IMG/VR virus record: IMGVR_UViG_3300025635_000121 | Coordinates: 1-29,617 of that record | From: a virus | Lineage: Duplodnaviria > Caudoviricetes | Direction: 5' to 3' (one strand) | Length of the DNA stretch: 29,617 nt | Part shown: positions 11,001-29,538 of the stretch, piece after piece | How positions within the stretch are numbered: position 1 is the first letter of the stretch | Layout of the letters: each line of letters starts with the position of its first letter | Program-made: the position numbers and the translations under genes | Notes under the pieces: generated by a model | What the model was told of the DNA's origin: nothing | Database searches by the model: none | Seen by the model: only the letters and a program-made list of their open reading frames with translations

Positions 11001-14000
11001 CTGATGAAGGCTCCCATGTTCATCAAGGAGGTCTTCAGCCAGTATGAGCAGATTGGCAAGATGGTCGGAGGGTTTGCTGGTAACACATTCCGCCAGCAGA
11101 TTGCCAAATACAAACGCGGCTACCTGAACGCTAAGAGGGTGGCCTCGCAGTTTCAAGACCTGCCCAAGCTGCAATCGGCTGCGATGCGGTCGCACAACAT
11201 CAAGAACGAGGAATCCTACCGGAGACTCTTCAACGAGATGGCGCATTACGGACGCCTCTTTGGCTCCCCGCTGAGGACTGGCTTCAAGCTGCCAACATCA
11301 CAGCAAGTCGTCACCAAGGAGGACATGGAGTTTCTAAAGCGGACTCTGGCCTTTGAAGAGAAGCTTCGCAGGGAAGTCACCGAGATTGATCCGGTCACAG
11401 GCGTTCGCTACATGCGCGGCGGGAAGGAAATCACCCGAAAAGGTTCCTACGTCGGCGACGCCGGTATGCCGCGCCACCTGAACCGTGGGGCCACGCGTTT
11501 CATTGCGGATGTCATCAACGCTTACGCTGATACTCCGAAGGGGTTCACCTCTTCCACAGACCTTTCCTCCAGCAGCACAGATGAGGTGGTCAAGTATTGG
11601 AACGAACACCTCGACACGCTCAAGCAGCACATCCTCGACAGCACGCGCACCGACCGGACCTTCAAGCAGTCCGCCGAGATGGCGGCTGCGGAGAAGCGGA
11701 TTGCCGCACGGTGGCTGGCCGGGAACATGGATCAGGTGAACAGTGTGCAGGACTTGGTGGACCTGATTGCCGCTGAGATTCCTGTCACGAGCGGGAAGAA
11801 CCCGCTGGACACCGCTCGGGAAGGACTCAACAACGAGCTTCTGCAATACGTCAGCCATGCACAGCGCATCCAGAAGGAACGCGCCGACGACAACGCAAAG
11901 AACAGCGGACTCTCCATCGCACTGTCATCCGACAACGAGTTCACCAAGCCTGCGGCCAACTTGGAACTGCCGTCGGAATACTACGACTACGGGGCAGTCA
12001 GCGGCATTGACCGCATCACGGCACTCTCTCGGGCAAACCACTCCGCGCTGGTTGACTTCGCCAACTCCCTCCGGCTTGCCATCACGGAATTGCAGAACCG
12101 GGTTGACCGGCTTAAAGAAGCCAAGACAGACAAGGATCGGGCAGCCATCTTGGAGAACTACAAGGGCAACCCGCAGGAGATGCAGGATGTGCTGGATCTG
12201 CTGAAGACCTCCTTGAAGAACTTCGAGGACAGCTACCGGGCGGGTGGCCCAGACATCGTGCCGACAAGGCTTGGGCAGAAGCTCTTGAAAGCGATTGTCG
12301 GAAGTGTTCTGGCCAAGTTTGAGCTTGCTGCCCGCAACCTTTCCCAAGGCCAGATTCAGGTGCTCACGAATGCGTGGGCGATGAAATACATGAGCGCATC
12401 ACTGGCTGCATGGAAAGCCCTGACGAATGTTCCCCGTGGCGTGGTCAACACGGGCTACCTCGTGGCGCGGAACATTGCTGGATTTGCCGACCGCCGCCTT
12501 GGACGCGACCCGCAGTTTCAGCGCACTCTCAAAGGTGCTGTGGACATGCTCGCGGATGGCATCTTCAAGTCTGCCCAGCTTGCGCTCCTGAAGCCTCGTG
12601 TCGGTGCGAAGAATGTGCGGGCCAGCTTTGAGCGCGTCAGTGACCTTGGCTTCGATGTCAGTGATGACTGGTGGCAGGTTGCCAAGCAGGCGTGGGCGGA
12701 AAGCGGTCAGTTCCGCAATCAGCTTGAGATGAACGAGGCCACCAAGACCCGCACTGGTCGTGCGTTGCATTTCCTTGAACGCATTGCGAACACTGGACTG
12801 GATGCCACCAACGCCTTTGTTCGCGGCAGCGTGCTCGAAGCGAGCGACCTGAACATGAACGCCCTCTCGCTTGGCTTGGTTGGCAACATGGAGAAGCGCC
12901 TTGGAGAAGTGGCGATGGTGTTCGGAAAGCGGCTCACCGATGCTGGTGTCACAGAGATTGATCCGGCGAACCCGGATGCGATGCTGAAACCCAACGAGTG
13001 GCTGCCTTCTCTGAACCAGCAGACCGCCGTGAACTCCTTGGCAGAGGTCCGCAAGTTCCTCGAAAGCAGCGCTTCCTCGGAAGGTTTTCAGTTGGAGAAG
13101 AACCTCCTGCAATACTATCAGGACACGATGGCTGGGAAGCCTGCTGAGATTTTCAACCAGCGAACCTTTGATGCGGTCCAGCGGAGCATGATTGCGGAGA
13201 ACAACGCCGCGCTCCCCACCAACCGTGCCAGTGCTGGCCAAGCCTCAACGCTCTGGCGCACGCTACTGACACTGCAAGGCTATCCCGCTGACGCTTTTCT
13301 GAAGCTCCTGCGCATCTCCACTGGCGGATCGCGGGACCGGAAGAAAGTGCTTCAAGCCGCGAGCAAGATCACTGCGGCTCTTGGATTCGCCGCCATCGCA
13401 ATCCTCTTCCAAGGTGCAGGCGATGCTGGAAGCGAGTGGATCAAGCGCAAGTTCCAGGGAAAGCGAGCCGACCGGCCTACTCCATTGGACGCAGACTTCT
13501 ACACGGACCCGGACCACCTGATGCGGGCGATGGGTAACTATCTACTGTTGAGCACATACTACTTTGGAGACACCATCAGGGGCGCTTACGGATTTGTTGA
13601 TGGAAGGTCAACCATTGATCCAAACCAGAAGGTGTTCGCTGTCGCCACTGTCTCACAAATCCTGCGCGATATTGTGAGCGGTGCCAAGATTGCGAAGAAA
13701 GGCGGCAGCGTTGAGGAAGTCCTCGCACCACTCCGTAGGTCAATCACACGGCTCACCTTCGGAGCGCCTGAGCTTGAATACATGCTCGGCAAGGAGCGCG
13801 ACAACACTGAAGCAGCCAGAAGGGGCATGATGGAAAACGCCAAGGCTAAAGGCTTTGAGCTGCCAGCACCCGGCTTCGGGGGCACCGTCGGCCTGACGAA
13901 CATCAAGCGCAAGGCTCTCAGCCAAGCCGTCAGCGACATGGACATCGCCCAACGCAAAGGCGACGCCGAAGGCTATGCCAAGGCGAAAGCCGCCGCGCAG

Positions 14001-15742: not shown

Positions 15743-16092
15743 CCATGCCAACCCTCCCACAAGTCATTGACGAGGTTCCTCCCTTCATCGTCGCCGCGAT
15801 GGCGAAGGTGGACCGGAAACCCCTCTCCAGGAGCCAGCTCGCAGAGCGTTCCGGCCTGTCCTTGCGCATGGTGGAGCGGTTGGCGGTGAAGACCTCTTGG
15901 GAAGGCGTGAACGTGGATGTGTGCGGAGCTTTTGCCGACGCTGCCTGCGTGGACCTCTTCAAGCCGTTCAAGGTGCGGAGGTTCCTGCTGGCTGCGGCTG
16001 TGTCGGAGAACCCGCTGAAACACCTTTCACCGGCTGCTAGGAAGACTTTTAATAGGTGCTTGGAAAAGTGGATTAAGAGGCAACTGCTATGA
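15739..16092 (+). CDS. XRE/Cro-like helix-turn-helix protein
   Basis: LSRSQLAERSGLSLRMVERLA is a typical HTH. Start is GTG 15739 (GTGA overlap) or ATG 15745; ATGA overlap with the next gene. Confidence 0.7.
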   Translation: MTMPTLPQVIDEVPPFIVAAMAKVDRKPLSRSQLAERSGLSLRMVERLAVKTSWEGVNVDVCGAFADAACVDLFKPFKVRRFLLAAAVSENPLKHLSPAARKTFNRCLEKWIKRQLL

Positions 16093-16988
16093 ACAGACTG
16101 AGCGACAGCGACAAGAACTTCGGGCCATTCACACTAGGCAAGTGGCACAAGTCATTCTCTGCCTACATCAACAGCGGTGGCGACGAGGGACGGGAGTCCT
16201 ACCTGATGCTGACCGCTTTTGGATTGGCCTTGAGGATTCGTGTTTTCGATTGGTTGTGCCGACCGTGGCGCGAGAAGTGGGTGGAGTGCAACTGGGACGC
16301 TGAGACAGTTAAGCGGCTTGGCAGCAGTGGGTATTGGAAAATCCACGAACGACGATTTGGATTCAGCCTGTCCGACATGGGAAACGGCTACGACTTCCTT
16401 CAGTGCTTTTTCGGGCCGCAGACGCACGACAGCTCGACGACTAAAAGCTGGTCGAAGCATCTGCCATGGAAGCAATGGGACCACGTAAGGCACAGCCTCT
16501 ACACTCCAACCGGAGCGCACTTTTACACCGAGCGTCGCGGTGCAGACTTCAGGGAGTTTTTCGATAAAAAGGAAGAGTGCCCGAAAGTCCACTTCGGATT
16601 CGAGGACGCCGACGGCGAACTAATCGTGGCGACCTGCTGCATTGAGGAACGTGAGTGGCACAAGGGGTCGGGGTGGTTCAAATGGCTTCGCTGGTTCTAT
16701 GCACCGAAAATCTGCCGCAGCTTGGACTTGGCTTTCAGTGCGGAAGTCGGTCCTGGAAAAGGCTCATGGAAGGGTGGCACCATCGGCCACGGAATAGATA
16801 TGCTTCCCGGCGAATCTCCCAAGGAAGCATTTCAACGCTACTGCGCGACAGACCACCGGCACAAAGGGAGACAATACAATCTTCGGTTCATTGGGGCGTG
16901 CAATCCACCTCCGCCACGCCACCACCCGCAAGATCCTCAACTGGAAATCAAGAAGCCATCACCCGAGCATCCACCTGAAAGCGACTGA
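16089..16988 (+). CDS. hypothetical phage protein (Trp-rich, beta-rich)
   Basis: 299-aa ORF with motif EVGPGKGSWKGGTIGHGIDMLPGE; its 3' end overlaps the convergent tail gene by 41 bp. Confidence 0.7.
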   Translation: MNRLSDSDKNFGPFTLGKWHKSFSAYINSGGDEGRESYLMLTAFGLALRIRVFDWLCRPWREKWVECNWDAETVKRLGSSGYWKIHERRFGFSLSDMGNGYDFLQCFFGPQTHDSSTTKSWSKHLPWKQWDHVRHSLYTPTGAHFYTERRGADFREFFDKKEECPKVHFGFEDADGELIVATCCIEEREWHKGSGWFKWLRWFYAPKICRSLDLAFSAEVGPGKGSWKGGTIGHGIDMLPGESPKEAFQRYCATDHRHKGRQYNLRFIGACNPPPPRHHPQDPQLEIKKPSPEHPPESD

Positions 16989-18894
16989 GCGTGAACACCG
17001 CGCCCACGGGCGGAATCACCTCGCCAAGATCGTTCTTCCCGATCACCGACAACTCGAAGTAGAGGAAACGTCCGCAGTAGTTGAACATCCAATTCTCCGA
17101 CTTCACCGGCCTGACATTTGCAGCCAAGTATTGAGCAGTCGTCCGGTCGTCTGGGCAGCGGATCTCCTTGTCAGTCATCCGATGCCAGAGCACCTCGCAG
17201 GAATCCCCGTCCGTGGTGAACTCCGCCTGCCATTCCGGGGCGAAATCGTCTGTCTCATACCCGAACGCGAGAGGCTTCAGGTAAGGATTGGCGTCTCGCG
17301 CCTGATAACTGGTGCCGATGCGCAGCCGCCAGTAGTTTGAGTCGCCGAGCAAGTCCTGAACGGTCGGCTCCATGAGGAACTGCCGGATGGACTTCTCAAA
17401 ATCCATGTTCCCCAGCGGGAACATCCCACGAACGATGCTGAAATAGCCGTCGTTGACGTATTCCCCGACGAACGGGACGTAGTTGCCGAGCGAATTGAAC
17501 GAGCCTTCTCCCGTGGCAGCGTTCTCGCAGCGTTCCCGGCTGTAACTCGTGCCGAGCTGCTTGATGGAGTAGTCCTGAGCGGAGGCTCCGATGAAAAGCT
17601 GCTGCTGATTGCACTCAGCGCAGAAGTCATCAATGGTTTTCCCGCCGATGTTGGCGCAGAGGGAGAGAAAATCGTCGGTGCAATACTCATCGAGCCACTC
17701 ATCGAGGGTCTGGCGGCGGTCGCTGCGGTAGTTGGCGAATACGGTGAACCCGTGATCAATGATGTCGGCGGTATTGATCCGCAGATTCGCCTGAATGGTG
17801 CGGAAGTTGAGGCATCCCTCACCGCTTTTCGGCCAGGACCACAGGATTGTCTTCAGGTTCGGCCAGTATTCACCCACAGGACCAGAGCAGCAGCTCGTGT
17901 CGAGGGTGTTGATGACCAGATTCGAGGAGCGCCATAGCCATTCAGGCTGCTCAGGCTCGGCCAGATAGACGTTCCACTTGTAGAACGCATCACGCCCAAG
18001 CCAGTAGAGGTTGTTTCCGTCGCTCACCAAGGACTGCGGATAGACGAGGCACTTGTCCCGGTTCGTTGGCTCGGTATAGACGCGAGCAAACCCGAACGAG
18101 ATGCCATTCACGAAGCACCGATAGATGCTCTTGTCAGTGAAGATGACCAGATTCCCCTGCAACTCCCGCGCTGCAAGGATGGTTTCCGTGTAGGGCAGGT
18201 CTTGAAAGTTCGCCACTGTGGCCGCTGAAGGCACCCACGTCAGCGGATTGTTCACACCGCTCCACCGAACGCGGCTCGTGTAGCGCGTGCCATCCTGAAC
18301 CACGTTCATCAGGAAAATACACCCGTTGAAGCTGGCTGCGACCGCTGCTTGGGTCACTTTCAGCGTGTTTAGGTCGGCGACTTCGTTCAGGGCGGAGTCG
18401 CCACAGCCTGCCGGGAGGGTTCCCAGCGTGTAGCGCTGCGGCTTGTCGGAGTTGTTGGTGAAAATGACCGTGTTGCCAGCCTGCGCCACGGACCACCGAA
18501 GTTGGTTGCTGGTGTTCCCGGCACCGAAATCCCTGCCAAGGTAGGTCCAGTCCCCGCTGCTCTCGCTCAGGATGGCGAGTGAGGAGCGATTGCCCCGGAT
18601 GAGCTTCCTGACACCGATGTTGTTGGTAGCCTCGTAGAGCAGCGTAAAAGGCTCCCTGAGAGGCGACAGGTCCAAACAGTCTCCTTGGTCGTGTCCATCC
18701 TGATTGACATAAGGCGAGGCATCTGCGAGCAGCCGCTCCCATCCGTAGCCTCGGGCGAGCTTGTCATTGTCGTCCACCATCATGTTCAGCTTGAAGCGGA
18801 ACGAGTTGGCGGGTGCATCCTCCGGGTTGGAGCGCGAGTCCATCGGCCCAAGGAGGGGCCGCAGGATGATGGACTTGTAGGGCGTGGTGGCCAT
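16948..18894 (-). CDS. tail nozzle/head-closure beta-propeller protein (P22 gp10 / T7 gp12-like)
   Basis: Likely start MATTPY at 18894 (TAATG overlap); 648 aa. Motifs RVRWSG.NNP.TW, GNLVIFTDKSIYR, SLVSDGNNLYWLGRDAFY and the C-terminal GRFLYFEL fit this class. Confidence 0.7.
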   Translation of the reverse strand: MATTPYKSIILRPLLGPMDSRSNPEDAPANSFRFKLNMMVDDNDKLARGYGWERLLADASPYVNQDGHDQGDCLDLSPLREPFTLLYEATNNIGVRKLIRGNRSSLAILSESSGDWTYLGRDFGAGNTSNQLRWSVAQAGNTVIFTNNSDKPQRYTLGTLPAGCGDSALNEVADLNTLKVTQAAVAASFNGCIFLMNVVQDGTRYTSRVRWSGVNNPLTWVPSAATVANFQDLPYTETILAARELQGNLVIFTDKSIYRCFVNGISFGFARVYTEPTNRDKCLVYPQSLVSDGNNLYWLGRDAFYKWNVYLAEPEQPEWLWRSSNLVINTLDTSCCSGPVGEYWPNLKTILWSWPKSGEGCLNFRTIQANLRINTADIIDHGFTVFANYRSDRRQTLDEWLDEYCTDDFLSLCANIGGKTIDDFCAECNQQQLFIGASAQDYSIKQLGTSYSRERCENAATGEGSFNSLGNYVPFVGEYVNDGYFSIVRGMFPLGNMDFEKSIRQFLMEPTVQDLLGDSNYWRLRIGTSYQARDANPYLKPLAFGYETDDFAPEWQAEFTTDGDSCEVLWHRMTDKEIRCPDDRTTAQYLAANVRPVKSENWMFNYCGRFLYFELSVIGKNDLGEVIPPVGAVFTLSRFQVDARVMAS

Positions 18895-20138
18895 TACACA
18901 ACAAAGCCCCAGTAGATTTCCCCTTGGGGACCACCGTTTCCACCAGTGGCGAACGGAAGTGCGCTTCCATTGGAAGCGCGGTCGGAACCTCCGCCCGGAT
19001 AATACGACCCGTAGTAACCTCCAGACGGCACACCCGGATTGGTTCCCTGCGGCCACCGCCTAAAATAGTAGTCGGCTCCCGTGTAGCCACCATTACCACC
19101 GCTGGCAGCGCTGCCAGCAATGCCGGTAAATTGAGTGACGGCTTGGAAGTATGTTCCGTTATATGTGGACGAACCGCCAGCCCCACCGGCACCATTGTAA
19201 ATTCCACCACCACCACCAGCCGCACGAGCTATCTCAATCCAAGGATCGCCATTTGCAGCTCGGTAATACAGCACGGCGTCCCCACCAGCCGTTCCGTTTG
19301 CAGAGTTTCCACCTCCGGTTCCAGACGCCGTAAATTCAGCGTAGAACTCATTTCCAGCAGCAACGCTGACTTCACCAATCAGCACCCCACCGCCACCAGC
19401 ACCGCCACCAGCGTTTGTAAGGCTGCCGCCACCGCCACCGCCACCAGCGCCGAAAAGCGAGAAGACAAACTTTGAGAATCCAGCCGGAACGACGTAGGGG
19501 GATGCTGGATTGATATAGGCAGCTAGTCCGCCAAACGTGTAGTAGGTGTAGTTGTAATAACGCCTTCCAGAAGCGACGTTCGACTTTGCGCTGAAATTTC
19601 CAGTCCCGTCGTGCCCGACCACCCAGTAATAGAGGATGTCGTTATCGCTCGTTCCAGAGAAGTCGTAATCAAGAAAAAGAATGTAATCGCCACAGTCGTA
19701 AAGCTGCTCACCTGAAACCGGCAGCCATTCAACCGTCGCATCATCCGGCTCGGTTGGAGCTAGAATAAGAGTTGCTGTGGCTGGGTTGTTGACAGTGTTC
19801 CGATAGACAGAGAACGAGGTAACTCCGGTCGGCTTCGTCCACCGCATCCGATACGCCTCACCATTGTAGTGGCGATACGCGATTGGCATTATCAGGTCCG
19901 CTACCGCAGTTAGCGATTCAGATCCTCCTCCCGTGGTTGAACTTCCACCGCCACCGCATCCAGTGGCGCACACGCGGTTTGTGTATGCGGTCGTAAAAGT
20001 CCCATCCTCGTTGAAGATGTAAGCCTGATTGTCAGAGGTCATCTGAACCACTCGGAACACCTTTGCAAGCGCCTCGCAAACGCTGTCGCCTGGGTTGACT
20101 ACTTGAGCTGCGAATTCGGATGGGGGATGAAATGGCAT
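18894..20138 (-). CDS. Gly-rich tail fibre/decoration protein with Fn3-like domain
   Basis: Likely start MPFHPP at 20138 (TAATG); 414 aa. Fn3-like W..P...SVYRN...YYWVVGHD..GNFS..SN, then a glycine-rich domain (GAGGGGGGG..GGGAGGGG..A.GGGGG). Confidence 0.75.
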   Translation of the reverse strand: MPFHPPSEFAAQVVNPGDSVCEALAKVFRVVQMTSDNQAYIFNEDGTFTTAYTNRVCATGCGGGGSSTTGGGSESLTAVADLIMPIAYRHYNGEAYRMRWTKPTGVTSFSVYRNTVNNPATATLILAPTEPDDATVEWLPVSGEQLYDCGDYILFLDYDFSGTSDNDILYYWVVGHDGTGNFSAKSNVASGRRYYNYTYYTFGGLAAYINPASPYVVPAGFSKFVFSLFGAGGGGGGGSLTNAGGGAGGGGVLIGEVSVAAGNEFYAEFTASGTGGGNSANGTAGGDAVLYYRAANGDPWIEIARAAGGGGGIYNGAGGAGGSSTYNGTYFQAVTQFTGIAGSAASGGNGGYTGADYYFRRWPQGTNPGVPSGGYYGSYYPGGGSDRASNGSALPFATGGNGGPQGEIYWGFVV

Positions 20139-20374
20139 TACGCGCTTGTAGTTGAGGATGAAGCCGACCCGCCACCACCACCTCCGCAGTTGGCGCTGCA
20201 AATCAGATCGGTAAAACCTTCAGTCAGAGAACCGTCCTCATTGAACTGGCAGGCTGTGTTTTGGTATTGAAGGGATGTCCACCCAAGAAGAATCGCCCTA
20301 ATCTCAGCGCAGGTTGGATTCCCCGGATCGGCAGGGGTCAAATCTGCATACTGCGATGGAAGCGGACAGGACAC
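20138..20374 (-). CDS. small protein paralogous to the fibre N-terminal domain
   Basis: 78 aa, GTG start. Shares P.PS.(Y/F)A..PG...C...FNEDG(S/T).T...C...CGGGG..SSTT with the next gene. Confidence 0.75.
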   Translation of the reverse strand: MSCPLPSQYADLTPADPGNPTCAEIRAILLGWTSLQYQNTACQFNEDGSLTEGFTDLICSANCGGGGGGSASSSTTSA

Positions 20375-20382
20375 GCATGGCC

Positions 20383-20410
20383 ACTATGCCACGTAGCCTT
20401 TATCGTTCAA
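20383..20410 (-). promoter_or_regulatory. possible promoter for a leaderless transcript of the fibre/tail genes
   Basis: - strand TTGAAC-N16-CATAGT, ending 8 nt before the GTG at 20374. This is one of the few intergenic gaps in the operon. Confidence 0.3.
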
Positions 20411-21345
20411 GTCCAAAACCTCGGCATCCCAAACCGCTCCAGATACTCCTCCAAAGACCGCGTGAAGACCCTCTCTGCGAAGACTCGCTCAATCTCGATG
20501 TTGGACTGGTCGTTTCTGAATAGGTCCATCGCAATCTTGAAGTCCTGTGCCGGGAGCGCGTGCTGGTGCATCTTCGCCACCATGAACGCCGTGGCGTCTT
20601 CTGGAAAGAGCGTGGCCGCAATCATCAGCTTGTTGTAGAGCGTGGCGGCAATCTTGTAGGTGTAGGTGGTGGCGGTCCTGAACTGGTGCCCTATCCGAAC
20701 ATCCGTCATCTGCCTGCATTCACCACCAGCCAGCCAGACCTTCAGCGAGAGGTAAGGCTCCGAGGAACCCCAGTGGCGAAGCATCCTCATGCCACCAATC
20801 TTGAAGAAGAGGCTGCGGGGCATGAAGTAGGCGGCTCCCAGGACGCAGGGTATCACGTCGTTGTTTGCCGGGTGCCGCTCTTTCGGAATCCACACCGGCT
20901 CAATGAACTGCATCAAGTGCGGCTTGTTCTTGTTCGGCCCGAAGAAGTTCAAGGTGGCCCCGTTGTAAGTCTTGCTCTCCGGATTCATCTGCATGTTCTC
21001 CGCGTTCAGGTGGACGCAAGTGCAGCCCCAGAGGGTGTCGTCGCTGGACTCCAACCTTTCAAGCGCCTTCTCATACCACCCCGGCTCAAAGCGCATGTGG
21101 GCGTCTATGATGAGCAGATGCTTCCGGCTGGCCATCGTGGCGGCGATGTGGCGGGCTGGCCCTACCCCAGCTCTCCCGTGGACGGTCCTGAACACGACGT
21201 TCTTATCGTCCAGTTGAAGGGGTTGGTCGGAGCCATCATCCAAAACTACCACTTCAGGAAGGTCGCCAGCCGTCTCCCTGATGGAGCGAATCGTGGCGTT
21301 CGCTTCCTCTTGGTCGTTCCGGCAGGTGATGCAGACGGAGATCAT
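20407..21345 (-). CDS. GT-A glycosyltransferase resembling polypeptide GalNAc-transferase (GT27/GT2)
   Basis: Start MISVCIT at 21345 (ATGA); 312 aa. Motifs VVLDDGS, GVGPARH, IIDAH (DxH), GAAYF..R..F..IGG, WGSSE.YLSLKVWLAGG, RIGHQFR. Confidence 0.8.
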   Translation of the reverse strand: MISVCITCRNDQEEANATIRSIRETAGDLPEVVVLDDGSDQPLQLDDKNVVFRTVHGRAGVGPARHIAATMASRKHLLIIDAHMRFEPGWYEKALERLESSDDTLWGCTCVHLNAENMQMNPESKTYNGATLNFFGPNKNKPHLMQFIEPVWIPKERHPANNDVIPCVLGAAYFMPRSLFFKIGGMRMLRHWGSSEPYLSLKVWLAGGECRQMTDVRIGHQFRTATTYTYKIAATLYNKLMIAATLFPEDATAFMVAKMHQHALPAQDFKIAMDLFRNDQSNIEIERVFAERVFTRSLEEYLERFGMPRFWT

Positions 21346-21995
21346 GCGCTCGCCGTGGAGTTTTTCACAATCACACCACCGATGAATGCGGTAAATGCTG
21401 GCGGGATGCACTCCTTTAATCCCTCACAGCTCATCCAATCTATGCCGTAAGCTGCTGGCGCGTTTTTTACGCTCTTAGGCTTCATTCCGAGAGCGAATCG
21501 CTTCTCCCTACTCGCCTTGCTTGCAGTCGTAACGAGCAGTGGGATTTGCGAGTGGTCGCACGCGCTCGGCGCTGCAATGTGGAAGTTTGTCTCAAAGTAG
21601 CGGTGCCGTTGCGTCCGCAGTCCAAACATCGAACCGCAAAGCATCACCGGGTTTTCTAGTTCGTGCCGTGCGCCAGCTACGTTCTCAATGACGTATGGCT
21701 TCCCAAGCTGTCGGAGCATATCCCGCAGTTGTGGAATCAGCTTCGGATATTTGGGCTTATGAGCGTCCGGCGTCAGGTGGCTGTATCCTTGGCACGGCGG
21801 CGAGGCGTGAACAGCATCGTATTCACCCCCATGTTCAGCGAGGTATTCCAGCGCATCATCGCACACGAAAGCGAATGGATAGCGAGGCTGCTGCTCAATA
21901 TCAATTCCAGTCACGTCGAATCCGGCTATGTGGTATCCCATTCCAGCACCACCCTCGCAACAAAACAGGTCCAGCATCTTCATCTTTGTGCTCAC
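21342..21995 (-). CDS. DNA (cytosine-5) methyltransferase, short phage type
   Basis: Motif I LDLFCCEGGAGMG, IV SPPCQ, VI ENV, VIII QRHRYF, X IPPAFT. Start GTG 21995 (GTGA) or ATG 21983. Confidence 0.85.
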   Translation of the reverse strand: MSTKMKMLDLFCCEGGAGMGYHIAGFDVTGIDIEQQPRYPFAFVCDDALEYLAEHGGEYDAVHASPPCQGYSHLTPDAHKPKYPKLIPQLRDMLRQLGKPYVIENVAGARHELENPVMLCGSMFGLRTQRHRYFETNFHIAAPSACDHSQIPLLVTTASKASREKRFALGMKPKSVKNAPAAYGIDWMSCEGLKECIPPAFTAFIGGVIVKNSTASA

Positions 21996-22192
21996 TGCTT
22001 GCACCTCCTCAAAAGGTAATCCCTCGCAGCCACCATCTCCAGACGTTCCTCCACCAACTCCTCGTAGCGTTCCTTCTGCTCGGCATCCCACTCGCCGCAC
22101 ATCTCCCCTAGAGCAGCCGCTATCTGCTCGTGCTCATGGTCTATCTCGGACAGAACTTCTGCGACGGTGGATTGCAGGGTGAGTTGGTTCAT
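21992..22192 (-). CDS. small acidic coiled-coil hypothetical protein
   Basis: 66 aa, E-rich, with start/stop overlaps on both sides. Confidence 0.65.
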   Translation of the reverse strand: MNQLTLQSTVAEVLSEIDHEHEQIAAALGEMCGEWDAEQKERYEELVEERLEMVAARDYLLRRCKQ

Positions 22193-22905
22193 GGATGCGC
22201 TTTCAGATATTCCCGCGTGAGCTGCCAGTAGTCATGCTGCCAGCGTGGATGCAGCGTCACCTTGCCGCGTTTCGGCATGGCCTTCATCACGAGACGCTTT
22301 ACGGTCTGCATCCCATTGAGCTGCCCCGGTCGGTCTGGCCCCGTGCGGGAGATGTTGCTGGAATGCCAGCGGTAGAGGAATCCGGTGTCCTCCGGTCGGC
22401 ATTCCACCCGCGCTCCACCATGACGATTCGCCAGCAGCCGCCTGAAGCCCTTGTCCTCCCCGGAGTTCTCGTGCGGGAACCCACCAACAGACGCCCAAGC
22501 CGACTTCCTGAAAAGCGACTGGTTGGTGGCTTGCTCGGCCATTCCGATGATTCTCCCGTTGCGAAGACAGAAGCGGCGGTCCTGCCGAATCCAGTCCCGG
22601 CCTTCCAGCCTGGATACCAGCCATGAGAGGTATCCCGGCAGGATAATGTCGTCGTCGTCGAGGTTGAGGATTAACTCCCCTTCACACTTCTCAATGCACT
22701 TGTTCCTGGTTTCCCCGAGAGTGGCCGGTCTGGAGTAGGCATTGATAACGCGAACACCTGGAGCAGTGCAGACCAAATGCTGCCGCTCGTAGGTGTTGTA
22801 GATCACCATCTCCTTGCTGGGATAGTCCTGCCGGAGAAAGCTCTCGATGGCTTCTTCCAGCATCCCCGTGCGGGCGTATGTGAGCGTGGCGCAGGAGATT
22901 TTCAC
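22189..22905 (-). CDS. family 2 glycosyltransferase
   Basis: Start GTG 22905 (KISCATLTYAR). Motifs EAIESFLRQDYP, LGETRN, LDDDD, GGFP..NSGED. Confidence 0.85.
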   Translation of the reverse strand: MKISCATLTYARTGMLEEAIESFLRQDYPSKEMVIYNTYERQHLVCTAPGVRVINAYSRPATLGETRNKCIEKCEGELILNLDDDDIILPGYLSWLVSRLEGRDWIRQDRRFCLRNGRIIGMAEQATNQSLFRKSAWASVGGFPHENSGEDKGFRRLLANRHGGARVECRPEDTGFLYRWHSSNISRTGPDRPGQLNGMQTVKRLVMKAMPKRGKVTLHPRWQHDYWQLTREYLKAHP

Positions 22906-23165
22906 TTTGCGATTGCTACAGGGATTACGGTTGTTGAACCGCCAACCCGGACCATCTGGGTCCATTCTTCCAGCGTTATTCCTGCCGGGTTTCCGGTGTG
23001 GCGACACCAAGTAGAATACGCTTTCGGAAACTCAACTCGGTTGCGGTATTCGTTGACGCCGATCAAGTAGAGAATGAACATGAATATGCAGACAGTCAGG
23101 CACAGGTTTTCTTGGCAAAACTCTACAAAGAACTTCACCTCCGATTTGAGCTTTTCAATTTTCAT
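22902..23165 (-). CDS. small membrane protein
   Basis: 87 aa with one hydrophobic stretch (LCLTVCIFMFILYLIGV); GTGA coupling to the next gene. Confidence 0.55.
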   Translation of the reverse strand: MKIEKLKSEVKFFVEFCQENLCLTVCIFMFILYLIGVNEYRNRVEFPKAYSTWCRHTGNPAGITLEEWTQMVRVGGSTTVIPVAIAK

Positions 23166-23199
23166 AAGTTCGGTTTAGAGCTTGTTGCGCAGGAGCTTT

Positions 23200-23862
23200 T
23201 CACAGCTTGGCAATTTCTGGAGCAGCCACCTCCACAAGCCAATTTACAAGGTCCGTTGGATAATCGAAGTCGCGTGATTTTCCGGGAATATCAACGTAGC
23301 GGTCAAGCGGGGTTGGGTGTTTTGGGAATGGATAAATCTCACCGGGGGAAGCCTCCAATGGTAATCCGTTCCAATGCCGCAACATTCTCCAAGAGCCGCC
23401 AACCGTCTCCCCCCTTCCCTCCATTTGCAAAACGGCTTCCATGCTCGATTTCCAGCGAAGCAGTTCGGATTTTGCGCAAAACGATGCTAGTATTTCGTAA
23501 TAAGCAATGTTTCCAAACCACAGGCTCTCATCCCGACACAGCCCGCAGATTTTGTCCACAGCAGCGTTTTCAAAGAAAACATCTCCGTGAACAAACAGCA
23601 CGTTTCCGCTACCATCCCATAGCCGTTCCGAAGAGGCAAACTTATCGGTGTTTTTATCTCCCGGAACAGGCTTGTGAATGGTGGCCTCATTCGCCGAAAA
23701 CCCATCGCCAACTATCCACACTTTTCCATGCTTGGAAAACTGCCGCACGGTTCGGTGAAGCAGAGGCTCTCCAGACACATTGATCAACTGCTTGGGAACG
23801 CCGGTGAAGTTTCCCCACCGAGAGCCAAGACCCCCACACAAAATTAGAATCTTCTCGATCAT
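23200..23862 (-). CDS. NTP-transferase (sugar-/choline-phosphate nucleotidyltransferase, LicC-like)
   Basis: ILCGGLGSRW...PKQLI.V.GEPLL.RT.RQ, HGDV, DFDYP.D. Confidence 0.8.
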   Translation of the reverse strand: MIEKILILCGGLGSRWGNFTGVPKQLINVSGEPLLHRTVRQFSKHGKVWIVGDGFSANEATIHKPVPGDKNTDKFASSERLWDGSGNVLFVHGDVFFENAAVDKICGLCRDESLWFGNIAYYEILASFCAKSELLRWKSSMEAVLQMEGRGETVGGSWRMLRHWNGLPLEASPGEIYPFPKHPTPLDRYVDIPGKSRDFDYPTDLVNWLVEVAAPEIAKL

Positions 23863-24608
23863 CGGATAAGCATTGCTGGGTTAATGAACACCTTGCCGCC
23901 ACGCTTTCGGATAGCTTGATTGAACGCTACGTGCTCCACATCTCCTCCATGAAATGTGCTTCTCATGCTGTATCTACACCCATCTATGGCAGACGTTCTG
24001 TAGATGCCGAGCCCGTTAAAAGCCGACTCAACCTCAATCGGTGGCAGGTGCCTCGGTATCGCTTTTTTGTGAGTGTGGATGAATTTATCTATCGCCTCCT
24101 CACCACTCATGGAAGACGGCCTACCATGAACCATCTTCCAGCAATCGTATGGACACCACTCCGAACGCAGTGCCCAAATGTCGTAATACTTGGTTGTGTT
24201 CGCAGTCATCGCCGCCCATCCGTCATGCTTAAAGCTGCTAAGAATGCTTTCTGTTGGAATTGGCTCCTGGCATATCCCGTCCATATCCAGCACTATCAGA
24301 AAGTCCTTCCTTTCTTTCCACAGCTCGTCTAGGCAGGCGTTCCGACACTCCGGCAAACGCTCCGTCCTGCTTTTTAGCCGACTAGCCATGCCGTCAAGGT
24401 TGACAACCCTTCTGGAATCGCCGCCGCTGCTCCACGCTTTTAGGGCTCCCAGAGTTCCATCCTCGTTGTCATTCGTGACAACCACATAAGAAGCGTCTTT
24501 GAACAACCCACCTATAGAGGCGAAGTTCGCCAAAACGCCGGGAAGATGTTTTTCAACGTTCCGCGCACAGCCGCAGACCTGAACAGAGTGTTTTGATGTA
24601 TCTATCAT
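23859..24608 (-). CDS. GT-A glycosyltransferase (CAP59/GT69-like motifs)
   Basis: Start ATG 24608 (ATGA). Motifs GCARN, ND..DGT, CRN..L, IVLDMD, YYDIWALR, VESAFNGLGIY, VEHV, KVFINP. Confidence 0.75.
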   Translation of the reverse strand: MIDTSKHSVQVCGCARNVEKHLPGVLANFASIGGLFKDASYVVVTNDNEDGTLGALKAWSSGGDSRRVVNLDGMASRLKSRTERLPECRNACLDELWKERKDFLIVLDMDGICQEPIPTESILSSFKHDGWAAMTANTTKYYDIWALRSEWCPYDCWKMVHGRPSSMSGEEAIDKFIHTHKKAIPRHLPPIEVESAFNGLGIYRTSAIDGCRYSMRSTFHGGDVEHVAFNQAIRKRGGKVFINPAMLIR

Positions 24609-25471
24609 AAGGCCCACTGGCAAATTTCTGGAAGCATTCTTGCACAGTCAAAACGTGAAGCGTCTGCACGCTGCGCCGCCGCATCGCGCTCCACAACATC
24701 CCATCTAACCCTCTTCACTTCCACAACAGCAGCATCCACATCGCTCGCCTCGAACCGCTGCAAATCCAAGACGTAGCAACCGCAGGAAGCGGCCTCCAAC
24801 GGGCGCGGCATGGAGCGATCAATCTCACCATGCCCGCTCCTGAGATTTATCACACCGCAAAACGCATTGTATAACGCAATGAGCATTTCAGGGTCCGATT
24901 TCGGACACTTCACATCAACAACCAGCCCGTGATTCTTCAACGCCTTCAGAATTGCCATCCGCTGCTCACCGTATGCTGTTCCAACAAACAGGAACAGTTT
25001 TGTTCTATCCGAAAATTCGGTAGTTTTGCGACACTTTTCAAATGCGAATGGGAACGCTCCAATCTTCATGGTTGGCAACCCGGTCAACTGCAACTGCCTG
25101 TATTCCTCCGAATTTGCGCCCCTATCAAATCCGACAAGATGCGTTGCACACGCCACCGCGTTGGCAAATTTATCACAGAATTCAGGTCTGGCCCTTTTCG
25201 CAAATACTAGCTCATTGGCTAGAAGTATTCTCTTTCCTCGAAGAGACTTAAACGCAGACCGCTTTTCAGCAGAGTCAAAAAGCCAGCCAAGTTGAGTTGT
25301 TCCACCAAAGAAAACACATCTCGCGTCGCTCGCTCCACATGCAGCGATCACCTCAGAAACATTGTTGTGACCACTTTCGATAGCAACCCCAAGGCCGCGC
25401 TCCACTATCACGTCTCCAACCCACGAAGAGCACGACGCTGGCTCATTTGCAGGGTAAATGAAAACTATCAC
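24605..25471 (-). CDS. GT-B glycosyltransferase-like protein (CgeB/Glyco_trans_1_2-like)
   Basis: FLFVGTAY..QR..IL..L...LYN....INL...MPRPLEAASCGCYVL; GTG start. Confidence 0.6.
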   Translation of the reverse strand: MIVFIYPANEPASCSSWVGDVIVERGLGVAIESGHNNVSEVIAACGASDARCVFFGGTTQLGWLFDSAEKRSAFKSLRGKRILLANELVFAKRARPEFCDKFANAVACATHLVGFDRGANSEEYRQLQLTGLPTMKIGAFPFAFEKCRKTTEFSDRTKLFLFVGTAYGEQRMAILKALKNHGLVVDVKCPKSDPEMLIALYNAFCGVINLRSGHGEIDRSMPRPLEAASCGCYVLDLQRFEASDVDAAVVEVKRVRWDVVERDAAAQRADASRFDCARMLPEICQWAL

Positions 25472-25524
25472 AATGGAAGTCTGGCGGAATTGACTTAGGC
25501 TAACATTCCTGAAATGGTTTCCCC

Positions 25525-25597
25525 AGCGTCAATCATTCGCGCATGTTGGTTGATGTTAGCACCGGGCAGGCTTGTCAGATGGACTGCCCGGTGCGTT
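25525..25597 (+). ncRNA. candidate cis-antisense small RNA (SymR/ptaRNA1-like architecture)
   Basis: + strand TTGACT (25490-25495)-N17-AATGGT, then GTTGGTTGATGTTAGC running into a perfect 11-bp stem GCACCGGGCAG/CTGCCCGGTGC (25559-25569/25584-25594). It lies opposite the - strand leader. Ends are estimated. Confidence 0.4.
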
Positions 25598-25599
25598 CC

Positions 25600-25628
25600 A
25601 TCTAACCGCCAGCTTTGGCGGGTGTCAA
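25600..25628 (-). promoter_or_regulatory. putative promoter with palindromic operator (copy 2)
   Basis: - strand TTGACA-c-CCGCCA-aagc-TGGCGG overlapping the stop of the upstream GT; the 16-mer is 15/16 identical to the one at 14512-14527. The -10 box is weak. Confidence 0.55.
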
Positions 25629-26182
25629 GCGCGTTTCTTACTTCGATAGCGATAGTAGTAGATCGTCTGCGGGATGTTTCCTTGGGTCCTCAAGAAGGGT
25701 TGAACGCGCTTGCTGAAGTCGTGGTCTTCCCCGAAGCTCTTCTCGGGGAATCCAGCTCGCAGCGCCAAATCGCGGCGGATTGCGTTCAGATGGTTCGGCA
25801 TCCTCCAGTAGATGCCATCCTTCTCGTGCCACTCCTTGCAGGTGACTGTGTGGATGAACGGCTTCGGGTTCTTCCCGTCGGTGGTAATCTCACCGCGCAG
25901 CTCGGCGCAGTCCGGCTTCGAGTGCAGAGCTTGCAGGACGAGCTGGACGTAGTTCGCTGCCACCTCGTCGTCATCATCCACAAAGGCGACGTATTCCCCT
26001 CTGGCCCGCTTCAGCAGCGCATTACGCTTGGCTCCGATGCAGACATTCTTGCCGCGATTGTCGGTCAGAATTTCGACTGGGAATCCGCGAGCCTGCTTTT
26101 CAAGCGATGCCATCAGGCGACGCAGAAACATCGCACGCTCTGGCAGGGTGCAGATGAGGATGCTGAGAGTGAAGGGGCTCAT
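25625..26182 (-). CDS. family 2 glycosyltransferase
   Basis: Start ATG 26182 (ATGA); 185 aa. Motifs LSILICTL.ER, IGAKRN.LL..A.GEYVAFVDDDD, FGED. Confidence 0.85.
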   Translation of the reverse strand: MSPFTLSILICTLPERAMFLRRLMASLEKQARGFPVEILTDNRGKNVCIGAKRNALLKRARGEYVAFVDDDDEVAANYVQLVLQALHSKPDCAELRGEITTDGKNPKPFIHTVTCKEWHEKDGIYWRMPNHLNAIRRDLALRAGFPEKSFGEDHDFSKRVQPFLRTQGNIPQTIYYYRYRSKKRA

Positions 26183-26835
26183 TTGGGGAAGCCAGCAGCC
26201 TTCCTCCGCTCGTAGTTCGGTTTGTCCACACACCACAAATTGCTGTTGCGAATGAATGTGGCATCCTTGCCTGTCTTTGCCCACTCGTGCTTGAACAGGC
26301 ATAGCGGAGACTTGACCGATTTGCCATCCCTCTCAGTCACATCTTGGAACTCGTTATCGCAAAACTCCGAACGATACGAGGGGTGGTAGATGTAACCCCA
26401 CGAGTCGATCAGCTTCTTCCCCGCTATCGGCATCGTGTTCAGGCCATGCTTGTTAAGGCCGTCGTCGAAGTGCAGGCAGCCGTCCAGATTCGGAAAGTGC
26501 TTCATCATCAACTGCTCGATGGTGACATCGTAGTTGCGCACCTGTGGCACCATGTCGTCGGAAGCGAGGATGAGCACGTCGTAGTCGCCCAACTTGTCGA
26601 AGTTCGCGTTGACAGCCTCAATCTTCCCCTTCGACGCGCCGGTATAAACCTTCATGTCACGCTGCCGGGAGATGAACGCCTGCACGTCGGCGGCGTGCAT
26701 CGTCCGGTCGTCCTCGTCAATGGACACCACGAAGCGGACCGGATTGCGGCGGGAAAGGAATGCCCGATACTTCTGCACCTGCCGGATGAATTGCCCCGGC
26801 CTGCCCCTGGTGGGATACTTGATTACGAAGCGCAT
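26179..26835 (-). CDS. GT-A fold glycosyltransferase
   Basis: KYPTRGRP, SIDEDD, KIEAVN, ILASDDM.P, FCDNEF, FKHEW. Confidence 0.75.
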   Translation of the reverse strand: MRFVIKYPTRGRPGQFIRQVQKYRAFLSRRNPVRFVVSIDEDDRTMHAADVQAFISRQRDMKVYTGASKGKIEAVNANFDKLGDYDVLILASDDMVPQVRNYDVTIEQLMMKHFPNLDGCLHFDDGLNKHGLNTMPIAGKKLIDSWGYIYHPSYRSEFCDNEFQDVTERDGKSVKSPLCLFKHEWAKTGKDATFIRNSNLWCVDKPNYERRKAAGFPK

Positions 26836-27025
26836 GTTGTTCTGTCAGATACTTGTCGTTCCGGGCTGTGCATCGGTCGCATCTAAACCGCCCGTCTTGG
26901 TTTAGCCGAATCTGTAGCAGGTCGAACTGGTCGTGGCAATCAGCGCATTCGTTCAGCGTCTCCTGCTCGTCCACTCCAATGATAGGCACTCGAAAGCCGT
27001 GGAATGGGACGAACGAAATCTTCAT
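26717..27025 (-). CDS. small zinc-finger protein
   Basis: Start MKISFVP at 27025 (TGATG overlap); CADC...CDRC. The 3' end runs 119 bp into the next gene. Confidence 0.55.
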   Translation of the reverse strand: MKISFVPFHGFRVPIIGVDEQETLNECADCHDQFDLLQIRLNQDGRFRCDRCTARNDKYLTEQHALRNQVSHQGQAGAIHPAGAEVSGIPFPPQSGPLRGVH

Positions 27026-27147
27026 CAGCCTGACGTGGTGCTGGTTGAATCCCCGCCAGTGGTGCTGGTGGCGTCTCCGCTGGTGGTTGTCGCCACACTG
27101 GTTCCGGGCGTCTCGCAGGGGGTTTCTATGATTCGGTCGAAGCGCAT
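27025..27147 (-). CDS. 40-aa Ser/Thr-rich peptide (not in the ORF track)
   Basis: MRFDRIIETPCETPGTSVATTTSGDATSTTGGDSTSTTSG*. Starts 6 nt after, and in frame with, the upstream stop; its TGA overlaps the next ATG. Confidence 0.6.
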   Translation of the reverse strand: MRFDRIIETPCETPGTSVATTTSGDATSTTGGDSTSTTSG

Positions 27148-27153
27148 TTTGTC

Positions 27154-29538
27154 TTATATCCACGCATGGGTTCCATCATCATACAAGGCCAGCGTCCACA
27201 CTGGAAAGAATTGAGGCGGCGGACTAAGAACTCCAGTTGAGTAGTTAGTGGACGGAACCGCACCGTGAGCTGATATTGTAAAGTCAACCGAAACGCTTCC
27301 TCCAGTTACGTTCGCAAGCGCATAGGTATCTGGAGTCGTGCTGTATTGGCCAACAAACGTATCGTTAAATATCAGATCGGGCCTTGTAAGGACAACCCAT
27401 GTCCCGTTGAAAACATCCAGATTCCCAAATCCTTGAATGTTTAACCAAACTATTGCTGGGCTCGGAGGAGGTGCCTCTGTGGTGGTTGCAGTAGTGGTCC
27501 CCTCAGTCGTAGTCCCAGCAGTAGTCGTCACCGCAGGCAACTCCGGAAGCACCACGCAGCTACCGTCTCCAACAATCCCGTTGGCAGACACACCGGAAAG
27601 AACCACCACATCGCCGGGTGCATATTTGGTTCCCGGCGTGAAGCCGACCTCACTCAGAGAAACGCTGCTGCCATCCGAGCTGACAGCATTCACCTGACCA
27701 AGAATCCACTGGCCATCCAGCACGAACACCACCCACGTTCCCGTCACGACCACCGCTGGAACAATCGTCCCGTCAGGTCCGAGCTTGCTGCCGATGTTGA
27801 AGCTGTAGGAAAGCTCGTTGTTGGAGTTCGCTTCCAGAACCGTGCAACCGGATGTCGCGTCAGGCGGGTCGCACTCAATCTTGTGCGTGACGTAGAACTT
27901 CTGGCCGTTGGTCAGCTCGATGATGAGCTTGTAGAACTTCCCATTGCTGACCACACCAACCGACTCACCAAACAGCTCCCATGTGTGAGGGCCGTCACCG
28001 GGCTCGTTTAGGTTGTCCGTGTAGGCGCTGTTGATCTGCCCACCATCGTCGAGCACCAGAGGATACGACTGGAAGGCCACCCCAAGGTTTTCCACGGGGA
28101 AAATCTCATACTGCGTCGCCCACGAGCGGCCTGTAGTCCACAACCCGTCGGAGTCTGTCTCATACATCTCCAACTGCTTCACGACCGCGCCATCCGCAAA
28201 GGCGAAGTCCAACTGCCAGTTGATGTCAGAACTTCCGTCAGGAGTGAACACGAACCACTTGCCTGCCCGGTCAGTCGTTGTGCAAAGCACATCCAGCACG
28301 GGAGCGGAGACTGCCACGGTAGCGGCGTCAATGTAGTCGCTGGAGTTCTCCGGTGAAGGGCACACCCCAAGGAACGCCTTGGCGGTGATGTTGTAGCCGG
28401 AAGCCAACTGGAACGGCCCCGTGTAGCGGTAACTTGCCCGAGTCGGCTCTGTGCCGTCCGTCGTAAAGTAGATGTCCGCGCCATCCGTTGCCGACGTGAT
28501 CGTGACCCACGTTGGGTAGGTGACAATCGCTCCCGCAGGCGGGTCGAACTCAGGAGCTTCGATGTCAGGGCATCCCGGCACACCATCTCCAGTAGCCCCG
28601 TTGCCAGGTGATTGCAGGGTTGCCGGAGTCGGCTCGCCGTCAATCGTGATGTCGGCCTGCCGCGCATTACTGCCCTCGCAGCCACGCACTCGGGTTTCCT
28701 CGCGGCAATCCCGCATGAGACCGCGCAAGGCCATGATCCAGTCCTTCTCCGCCTGCGCTGCCGCCACGTCGTCCCGCTCGTAGTCTTTCAGGTGGTTCCA
28801 GAGGACGTAGTAGCGCACGGCTCGCTTGAGCTGTGCGTTGTCCACCACGAGGTCGAGGTCGTCCCAGTCGGCTTTGATGCCGTCCCACTCCACAATCACC
28901 GTCTCAGTGCTCTGGAGCCACGGCGCAAGGTAGATGCGGCCCCGCTCCAGCGACCAGACACCATGCCGGGAGCGACCCCAGCGGGAATCCGTGGAGGCTT
29001 GCGGCTGGTAGTGATGCCCTAACGGGAGCGCAGGGCTGGCAAGATACTCCGCGTCCGTCGGCGTCGGGAAGTTCCCCTTCTGGCACGAAGCTCCGGGGAA
29101 CCCGAACAGACCGCTGAAGTTGGCGTTCCCACCGCAGCTACTACACGAGGCAACCTGCTGCTGATACTTGAGCAGCTCGCAATGCGGAACCTGCTTGTAG
29201 TAGATGCGAGAACACCACTGGTCAGGGGCCGCCGCCGATTCAAGCTGTGTTGCCGGATCAATCTGGTCAATGACGGACAGGCGGCGAATTGTGTTGGCGA
29301 TGCTTCCAGCAACCAACGCACCGGGAGCCTCCATCACGTTCAGCCCGCAGTTGTAGAACCGCGAACAGGCCCGGTAGAGCTGGCTGTTATTGTATTGGTA
29401 GCAGTCCGCCCAACGCTGGATCTCAATCAACGCTTCCGTGAAGAACTTGTTGTGCGGGAGAATCAGGTTCTCCGCCTCTCCCTGTGGCCACAGGAGCGGC
29501 TGCAACTCGGACTTCAGGTTGGCGTAGGTGTAGGGCAC
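27154..29538 (-). CDS. head-tail adaptor/tail tubular A-like protein fused to CHB_HEX_C/Ig-like modules and a Thr-rich linker
   Basis: 794 aa. Adaptor-like N-terminal ~290 aa (IYLAPW..TVIVEW...AVRYYV), then PEFDPPAG..VTITSATDGADIYFTTDGTEPT..S.RYTGPF..ITAKAF (CHB_HEX_C/Fn3-associated), beta-rich domains and TTTAGTTTEGTTTATTTEAPPPSP. Confidence 0.7.
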   Translation of the reverse strand: MPYTYANLKSELQPLLWPQGEAENLILPHNKFFTEALIEIQRWADCYQYNNSQLYRACSRFYNCGLNVMEAPGALVAGSIANTIRRLSVIDQIDPATQLESAAAPDQWCSRIYYKQVPHCELLKYQQQVASCSSCGGNANFSGLFGFPGASCQKGNFPTPTDAEYLASPALPLGHHYQPQASTDSRWGRSRHGVWSLERGRIYLAPWLQSTETVIVEWDGIKADWDDLDLVVDNAQLKRAVRYYVLWNHLKDYERDDVAAAQAEKDWIMALRGLMRDCREETRVRGCEGSNARQADITIDGEPTPATLQSPGNGATGDGVPGCPDIEAPEFDPPAGAIVTYPTWVTITSATDGADIYFTTDGTEPTRASYRYTGPFQLASGYNITAKAFLGVCPSPENSSDYIDAATVAVSAPVLDVLCTTTDRAGKWFVFTPDGSSDINWQLDFAFADGAVVKQLEMYETDSDGLWTTGRSWATQYEIFPVENLGVAFQSYPLVLDDGGQINSAYTDNLNEPGDGPHTWELFGESVGVVSNGKFYKLIIELTNGQKFYVTHKIECDPPDATSGCTVLEANSNNELSYSFNIGSKLGPDGTIVPAVVVTGTWVVFVLDGQWILGQVNAVSSDGSSVSLSEVGFTPGTKYAPGDVVVLSGVSANGIVGDGSCVVLPELPAVTTTAGTTTEGTTTATTTEAPPPSPAIVWLNIQGFGNLDVFNGTWVVLTRPDLIFNDTFVGQYSTTPDTYALANVTGGSVSVDFTISAHGAVPSTNYSTGVLSPPPQFFPVWTLALYDDGTHAWI

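Follow-up and report, generated by a model that had tools for sequence, protein, structure and literature searches.

A candidate virion O-glycosylation pathway with a mucin-type initiating enzyme-like glycosyltransferase in an uncultured podophage

The virus record IMGVR_UViG_3300025635_000121 (Duplodnaviria; Caudoviricetes) is represented by a stretch of 29,617 nucleotides (nt), hereafter the window, a 29.6-kb podophage fragment with an estimated completeness of 43%; complete relatives are mostly 70–78 kb long, and several have terminal repeats. The window contains a minus-strand run of genes leading from a protein of 794 amino acids (aa) to a 648-aa tail nozzle. Within this run, a block of six predicted glycosyltransferases (GTs) and a nucleotidyltransferase sits between a putative adaptor gene and the fibre and nozzle genes, and all seven of these enzyme open reading frames (ORFs), as listed by a first-pass annotation of the same DNA, are indeed present on the minus strand. 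We describe here this block, the candidate acceptor proteins that surround it and its counterparts in related phages, and consider it likely, from sequence comparison and structural modelling, that the block is a phage-encoded pathway which O-glycosylates the phage's own particle. GTs are named by the left coordinate of their gene in the window (e.g. GT25625), relative loci bear L-numbers and relative records G-numbers, and gene-positive or gene-negative means with or without the GT27-like gene described below.

At the upstream end of the block, the putative adaptor, so called from its position after the capsid gene (794 aa; 27154–29538), is followed by a 40-aa peptide composed of an anchor and a Ser/Thr/Gly tail (27025–27147), and both are candidate acceptors. 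Two core enzymes come next, namely GT26179 (26179–26835), a 218-aa GT-A-type enzyme that matches a PHROG glycosyltransferase at 1e-12 and has homologs in Streptomyces phages, and GT25625 (25625–26182), a 185-aa GT2 enzyme. The central, swappable module consists of GT24605 (24605–25471; putative GT-B, 288 aa; Glyco_trans_1_2, E 0.011) and GT23859 (23859–24608; putative GT-A, 249 aa; CAP59, 7e-5), both below cut-off and the weakest calls of the set, and of a nucleotidyltransferase of sugar-phosphate or polyol-phosphate type (23200–23862; NTP_transf_3, 2e-8), for which family support is confined to the N-terminus. A further core GT2 enzyme, GT22189 (22189–22905; 238 aa), precedes GT20407 (20407–21345; 312 aa), the predicted initiator. 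Three of the enzymes (GT25625, GT22189 and GT20407) pass the Pfam GT2 cut-off, and a hydropathy scan found no membrane segment in any of the seven. Beyond them lie a 78-aa protein, paralogous to the N-terminal anchor of the fibre and ending in a Gly/Ser/Thr tail, again a candidate acceptor (20138–20374), the putative fibre (18894–20138; 414 aa), built of this anchor, a Gly/Ser/Thr linker and a variable Gly-rich C-terminus, and, as the downstream edge of the cassette, the tail nozzle (16948–18894; 648 aa), which matches the nozzle gp16 of 8zkk (E 0.0024) and 9nwi_Y (6e-7). For six genes, the likely start differs from that of the longest ORF (GT25625, 26182; GT23859, 24608; GT22189, 22905; GT20407, 21345; fibre, 20138; nozzle, 18894).

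The interpretation turns on GT20407, for which the fold and family assignment that the first-pass annotation had left to later searches is now available: the protein has the fold of the polypeptide N-acetylgalactosaminyltransferases (ppGalNAc-Ts). All 16 matches of its PDB sequence search are ppGalNAc-Ts, including Toxoplasma GalNAc-T3 (8uhv), with a best E of 1.9e-10. Its AlphaFold2 model has a predicted local distance difference test score of 96.6, and a Foldseek search with the enzyme, which returned 401 chains at E ≤ 0.001 and in which identities were taken from the top rows, gave ppGalNAc-Ts exclusively among the matches listed (best E 3e-20, template-modelling scores 0.68–0.78). The residues D81 and H83, which form a DxH motif, and H220 align with D224, H226 and H359 of GalNAc-T2 and show no variation among the 50 homologs aligned, 49 of them chosen from 120 listed. 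The homolog family is large, comprising 1178 cluster representatives at E ≤ 1e-30, and GenBank phages gave no match to the protein. According to passages of PMC7185993, the DxD motif is replaced by DxH only in GT27 and GT60, and both families O-glycosylate Ser/Thr residues of polypeptides; GT27 is defined, in the corresponding parts of PMC11074326 and PMC4202792, by a membrane-anchored catalytic domain with a lectin domain, the DxH motif and a C-terminal His binding Mn2+.

Like the eukaryotic GT27 enzymes, the phage protein combines a GT-A fold, DxH and a C-terminal His with a WG..E..S.K/RVW and a GH.FR stretch, but it is only ~20% identical to them, has an altered donor-binding motif and would act in the bacterial cytoplasm. 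It contains no ricin-B lectin domain, as judged from the lack of any lectin Pfam match and a modelled C-terminus that is helical, and no Golgi membrane anchor, the maximum 19-residue hydropathy being 1.22. WGGEN is the defining donor-binding motif of GT27 ppGalNAc-Ts; the phage enzyme reads WGSSE at this place, and most of the homolog family WGxDE, and because of this change no donor is assigned to the enzyme. GT60 polypeptide alpha-GlcNAc-transferases, found in protists and some prokaryotes and themselves lectin-less, share the DxH motif. Compared here by sequence model and motif, the GT60 model PF11397 matches the phage protein weakly (E 0.0018), with 18.2 bits against a curated cut-off of 21. 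The 312-aa protein is thus predicted to work like a GT27/GT60 enzyme, yet is not assigned as a member of GT27, and it is the predicted initiating enzyme of an O-glycan.

A lineage-wide candidate acceptor was found in the major capsid protein of the relatives, which drew no identification from Pfam, PHROG and PDB sequence searches and no match among GenBank phages, and for which a fold search gave the HK97 fold. In close relatives this protein ends in TTTPAD. From 182 capsid-protein matches, 80 were kept, and the scored set, limited to records that contain the capsid as well as the nozzle gene, comprises 18 gene-positive and 23 gene-negative records, the latter containing identical pairs; fragments lacking the nozzle were left out, as were G062, because of its truncated nozzle, and two records that stop 3–6 kb past the capsid gene (G051 and G054), the enzyme of their close relative G029 lying 15 kb downstream. 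A run of at least three Ser/Thr residues at the post-core position of the capsid protein is present in 16/18 gene-positive and 0/23 gene-negative records (Fisher 1.5e-9), and runs of four within the last 16 residues in 13/18 and 0/23, respectively. In G012, whose capsid protein has acquired an additional domain at its C-terminus, the Ser/Thr run persists as an internal linker. In one of the record sets, 0/10 of the records at least 90% complete have the gene, and none of them has the tail. On the capsid tree, tail and enzyme traits change three times each; the match between them is tight, but it is not statistically independent of kinship. The co-occurrence of tracts and GT clusters, a check suggested by the first-pass annotation, has a divided outcome, in that the capsid tail tracks the GT27-like gene and the GT clusters themselves are not tied to the tail.

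Gene-negative capsid proteins (L138–L147, L150, L159–L165, L170, L181–L184) often end in Tyr-rich sequences, such as YxDLY or DYYY, and several of these Tyr-tailed relatives carry other GT clusters. A different linkage chemistry on such tails is conceivable.

Inside the window, the four Ser/Thr tracts singled out by the first-pass annotation all exist, and their enrichment was assessed by shuffling residues within each protein, which bore out significance for the adaptor tract (10 Ser/Thr in 15; p 0.003) and not for those of the 78-aa protein and the fibre; the 40-aa peptide is 45% Ser/Thr overall. The 794-aa adaptor comprises a conserved N-terminal part of ~295 aa, which gave no database match, a Fn3-associated domain, a Thr tract at about residues 671–692 and a hypervariable C-terminal domain. 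The 40-aa peptide has its first ~12 residues in common with the N-terminus of the large VWA appendage that comes after the adaptor in relatives at a greater distance, and beyond this anchor it possesses only a variable, bare Ser/Thr tail; in L008, the same start and tail precede a BNR-repeat domain, and this arrangement is present as a tandem pair. Similarly, the 78-aa protein repeats the fibre anchor and closes with a tail, and copies of the anchor that have no tail occur in the gene-negative L072 and L168 and also in the gene-positive L027. It is only in the window's subclade that tracts on the adaptor, the 40-aa peptide and the fibre are typical. The dedicated acceptor linkers that had been proposed to flank the GTs do have candidates in the window, but the candidate shared across the lineage is the capsid C-terminus, outside it. 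As a separate observation, distant homologs of the adaptor-like domain (P0036, P0038–P0041; L071, 3–1052) carry, in place of the Fn3-associated part, a fused metallophosphoesterase domain (PF00149).

Comparison of relatives' loci divides the enzymes into a stable core and a variable centre. GT26179, GT25625, GT22189 and the GT27-like gene are retained in 6/6 close contigs spanning the block, and the central three genes, two GTs and the nucleotidyltransferase, in only 2/6, so that the activated-donor enzyme of the first-pass annotation is present but belongs, with two GTs, to a swappable unit. In sister strains, the centre is occupied by a TylF methyltransferase with GT15- and GT25-like genes (L001, L004, L009), a WbqC-like set (L013), GT10-like and pyruvyltransferase genes (L026) or dehydrogenase, transketolase-like and FkbM genes (L008), and three distinct modules are found among strains 91–97% identical. 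At 8014–10276, the L008 module includes split transketolase/E1-like genes together with a zinc dehydrogenase, a combination suggestive of the synthesis of a branched or unusual sugar. The GT27-like gene usually stands immediately upstream of the nozzle gene, mostly ending a GT cluster, and this arrangement holds down to 29% nozzle identity; the gene is absent from L067, L068, L071 and L072, no match being found across their whole records. Homologs of GT22189 head the GT cluster in distant relatives, some of which lack the GT27-like gene. GT25625 is homologous to the GT domain of gp108 of mycobacteriophage Che8, which is its top match (38% identity over 193 aa, E 1e-30); its GenBank matches, 63 records, are actinobacteriophages throughout. 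A PDB sequence search with GT24605 gave no match.

In the pathway that we propose, the soluble ppGalNAc-T-like enzyme would attach the first sugar to short Thr/Ser tails of virion proteins. The acceptor would be the C-terminal Thr run of the capsid protein, to which the window's subclade would add the adaptor, the 40-aa and 78-aa anchor peptides and the fibre linker. The sugar, an N-acetylhexosamine (HexNAc), either N-acetylgalactosamine (GalNAc) or N-acetylglucosamine (GlcNAc), would probably be donated by a UDP-sugar of the host, in the cytoplasm and at a late stage of infection; the three conserved GTs would then build an inner core, and the swappable central module would vary the outer glycan in the manner of a serotype locus, the modules of sister strains encoding GT15-, GT25- and GT10-like enzymes, O-methyltransferases and pyruvyltransferases. 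Speculatively, the resulting glycan coat might protect the particle or adjust adsorption. The central idea of the first-pass annotation, a phage O-glycan placed on Ser/Thr linkers by an initiating GT, is in part supported by the ppGalNAc-T-like gene, the gp108 homolog and the Thr tails that track the gene. More tentatively, at somewhat under an even chance, we suggest that phages hold small, soluble, lectin-less relatives of the mucin-initiating enzyme that glycosylate (HexNAc-O-Thr) a dedicated Thr tag on every capsid subunit as well as dedicated carrier peptides, with a swappable, serotype-like module for the outer sugars, and that mucin-type O-glycosylation may thus have a widespread form among viruses of prokaryotes, since the same type of enzyme accompanies mucin-like tracts in unrelated phages.

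Evidence from outside the lineage comes from viral loci with weaker homologs, in which a tract of at least 11 Ser/Thr in 15 residues is present in 7/17, compared with 3/42 control loci; the window-lineage capsid family was absent from the seven of these 17 records that were tested. In L031, a 204-kb phage, a 428-aa virion-like protein containing a very long, almost pure Thr run (8414–9700) lies directly upstream of a GT27-like gene with DAH, WGSEE and GHKFR motifs, and a GT cluster follows. Distant DxH-type GTs are also seen together with small proteins ending in long Ser/Thr/Ala tails in L042, L043, L044, L046 and L048.

A number of observations weigh against the proposed pathway. The capsid gene of the window phage itself lies off the contig. 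The post-core trait definition was picked after inspection of the data, and the earlier one, based on the last 16 residues, separates the records less cleanly for runs of three (15/18 vs 5/23); the capsid tree offers only three independent pairs, two concordant and one tied (sign test, p 0.5). Two records carry the gene without a tail at the post-core position, G018, which has no capsid tail and instead a Pro/Thr-rich tract in an appendage protein, and G015, in which a Thr run is located further along a capsid extension. A GT2 match is found in 6/15 gene-negative records, G041 and G043 keep a GT22189-like gene, and clusters of GT and sugar-modifying genes occur without Thr tails in G041, G043, G032, G033 and G042, so that, in this lineage, GT clusters extend beyond the tail system. 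Downstream of the capsid gene, tracts are seen in 4/17 gene-positive and 1/18 gene-negative records, and in the window those of the 78-aa protein (p 0.36) and the fibre (p 0.31) are not significant alone. At the position of E334 of GalNAc-T2, the phage enzyme has a Ser, with Asp in 31/50 homologs; T4 glucosyltransferases make up 40% of the members of the look-alike cluster of GT24605; and in the comparison outside the lineage, the control loci all belong to one lineage, and L042 and L043, on the side of the weaker homologs, form one clade.

Part of this evidence can be read differently, with a pairing limited to the GT27-like gene and the Thr tails, for a single-sugar or short modification, and the other GTs assigned to a separate and older pathway that has a different acceptor or initiator. 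The parts do occur singly or at a distance: the GT27-like gene precedes the nozzle with no GTs next to it in L029, L030 and L033, a GT cluster lacks this gene in G041 and G043, and in G012 and G029 the parts are far apart from each other. However, most gene-positive loci join a GT22189-like cluster with the GT27-like gene, co-directionally and between adaptor and nozzle, the four GTs stay together in all six close contigs, and the Che8 gp108 homolog indicates virion glycans, all of which makes two separate pathways unlikely. Were the sugars destined instead for the host surface, the enzymes would remodel lipopolysaccharide (LPS), capsule or a host surface protein, in superinfection exclusion or serotype conversion; many cassette families do resemble LPS or exopolysaccharide enzymes (GT9, GT25, GT10, pyruvyltransferase), and passages of PMC12801897 propose this reading for cyanophage GT clusters. 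Cassettes for serotype conversion of the Gtr type are carried by temperate phages and combine an integrase with a membrane-bound GT or flippase. Neither hallmark was seen: a stand-alone integrase is found in 0/5 near-complete genomes (one recombinase-like domain occurs in a 3315-aa frame of G008), the enzymes are soluble, and no flippase or membrane GT was seen. As the Thr tail pattern would also be left unexplained, we regard a host-surface role as quite improbable.

A third reading, in which the enzymes hypermodify phage DNA bases and the tracts are merely flexible linkers, draws on the C5 DNA methyltransferase within the block, on the T4 enzymes in the GT24605 look-alike cluster and on the known glucosylation of DNA by phage GTs (treated in passages of PMC12619734). 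The methyltransferase is missing from 18/18 close loci, though, and the block is placed among late structural genes. A thymidylate-synthase-type hydroxymethylase was found in 0/5 near-complete gene-positive genomes, in a search whose control was found in 10/14, and TET/JBP likewise in 0/5 near-complete genomes, in a search run without a positive control. Moreover, the tails at the end of the capsid protein and of the 40-aa and 78-aa peptides have nothing beyond them to link. DNA modification is accordingly a very improbable function of the block.

Among known systems, O-glycosylation of the particle by this block would stand closest to that of the mycobacteriophages. Virion glycosylation has been reported for Che8, Corndog and Myrna (PMC11256854, PMC12363180, PMC12619734, PMC13445384), and within the passages citing Freeman et al. 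2023, it is reported for mycobacteriophages only, with glycans at the C-termini of capsid and tail-tube proteins. As described in such passages, the Che8-type system resembles the present one in its phage-encoded GT cluster, which includes the homolog of GT25625, and in the methyltransferase that accompanies the GTs, as it does in the window's sister strains; it differs in that the window belongs to a podophage lineage and has six GTs rather than three, in a cassette among tail genes. The predicted acceptor here is a Thr run, whereas the Che8 capsid and tail-tube proteins end in a single terminal Ser. No homolog of gp110, the essential Che8 enzyme, was found in the window system, and the predicted initiator shows no likeness to gp110 (probability 0.2%). 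Che8 gp110 is said to be a predicted polypeptide GalNAc-transferase; in our comparison it has no likeness to the GT27-like family. The window system is likely, on comparison of its genes, to be one of virion O-glycosylation with an initiator unrelated to gp110. The GT and nucleotide-sugar clusters of large cyanomyoviruses (S-SCSM2R; PMC12801897) similarly gather numerous variable GT families within a single phage block; they were read as host-surface or DNA modification, and the passages concerned mention neither an acceptor tag nor a GT27-like gene. Among the papers listed by literature searches, no title or abstract opening describes a ppGalNAc-T-like phage enzyme or a Thr-tagged capsid protein; Freeman et al. 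2023 may include GT-bearing phages or ppGalNAc-T-like annotations relevant to this novelty.

The block holds four further genes, which the first-pass annotation did not mention. An accessory 102-aa ORF with two CxxC pairs (26717–27025) has no PHROG match and overlaps the next gene by 119 nt, and it tiles this stretch together with the 40-aa ORF, so that a 52-aa ORF at 26940–27098 was discarded as lying in the wrong frame. An accessory 87-aa membrane protein (22902–23165) is found in 1/18 loci, and a 66-aa ORF (21992–22192) is retained among close relatives. The C5 DNA methyltransferase (21342–21983) was rejected as a pathway member on account of its absence from the close loci. It occupies an insertion hot spot between GT22189 and the GT27-like gene (window 21342–22192; L001, L005, L013, L022, L036), the other cargo of which consists of methyltransferase-like genes, with a dNMP kinase-like gene nearby in L036. 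Translational coupling, claimed for most of the block, is seen as 1- or 4-nt overlaps at 9 of 15 junctions; besides the 119-nt overlap, the others are five gaps of 6 to 153 nt, that at the methyltransferase gene measuring 8 nt. Outside the block, the plus strand encodes a polyvalent protein of 4143 aa that gave two ART-PolyVal matches (2076–14507), and in G008 the 3315-aa frame has a tyrosine-recombinase-like match. A gene of the Acb3 family of inhibitors of the cyclic oligonucleotide-based antiphage signalling system (16089–16988, plus strand; PF25187, E 6e-58) has an identical copy in only one of the 18 close loci (L012) and a 79% identical one within the GT cassette of the distant L091 (6258–7103).

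The assembly is backed by two other DNA runs, each giving depth in 30/30 bins of the window. An RNA run, X12, has contigs across 25/30 bins; as such a run can contain DNA, this is not read as expression. X12 and X8 have zero cover at 23260–25379, which fits a swapped central module and is not proof of it. Most sequencing runs containing the window phage have a freshwater label. Clues to the host diverge and neither bear out nor overturn the first-pass view of a lineage that does not look actinobacterial: GenBank homologs of two core GTs (GT25625 and GT26179) are all in actinobacteriophages, and the five contigs of metagenome-assembled genomes that match the lineage come from five non-actinobacterial groups, scattered and possibly mis-binned. 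A Shine–Dalgarno-like motif is absent from the 18 nt upstream of every gene checked in 18894–29538, possibly a sign that the host belongs to a phylum which dispenses with such motifs.

If the proposed pathway is true, phage virion glycosylation would extend to uncultured podophages, and the variety of modules across strains 91–97% identical suggests that glycan variation is selected, in waters without antibodies as an obvious pressure. The lineage also provides a testable enzyme–acceptor pair, in which the partner of the ppGalNAc-T-like protein is a short Thr tag accessible to peptide synthesis. A soluble enzyme of 312 aa and of this type could find use in bacterial glycoengineering, and it would be relevant to how mucin-type O-glycosylation arose.

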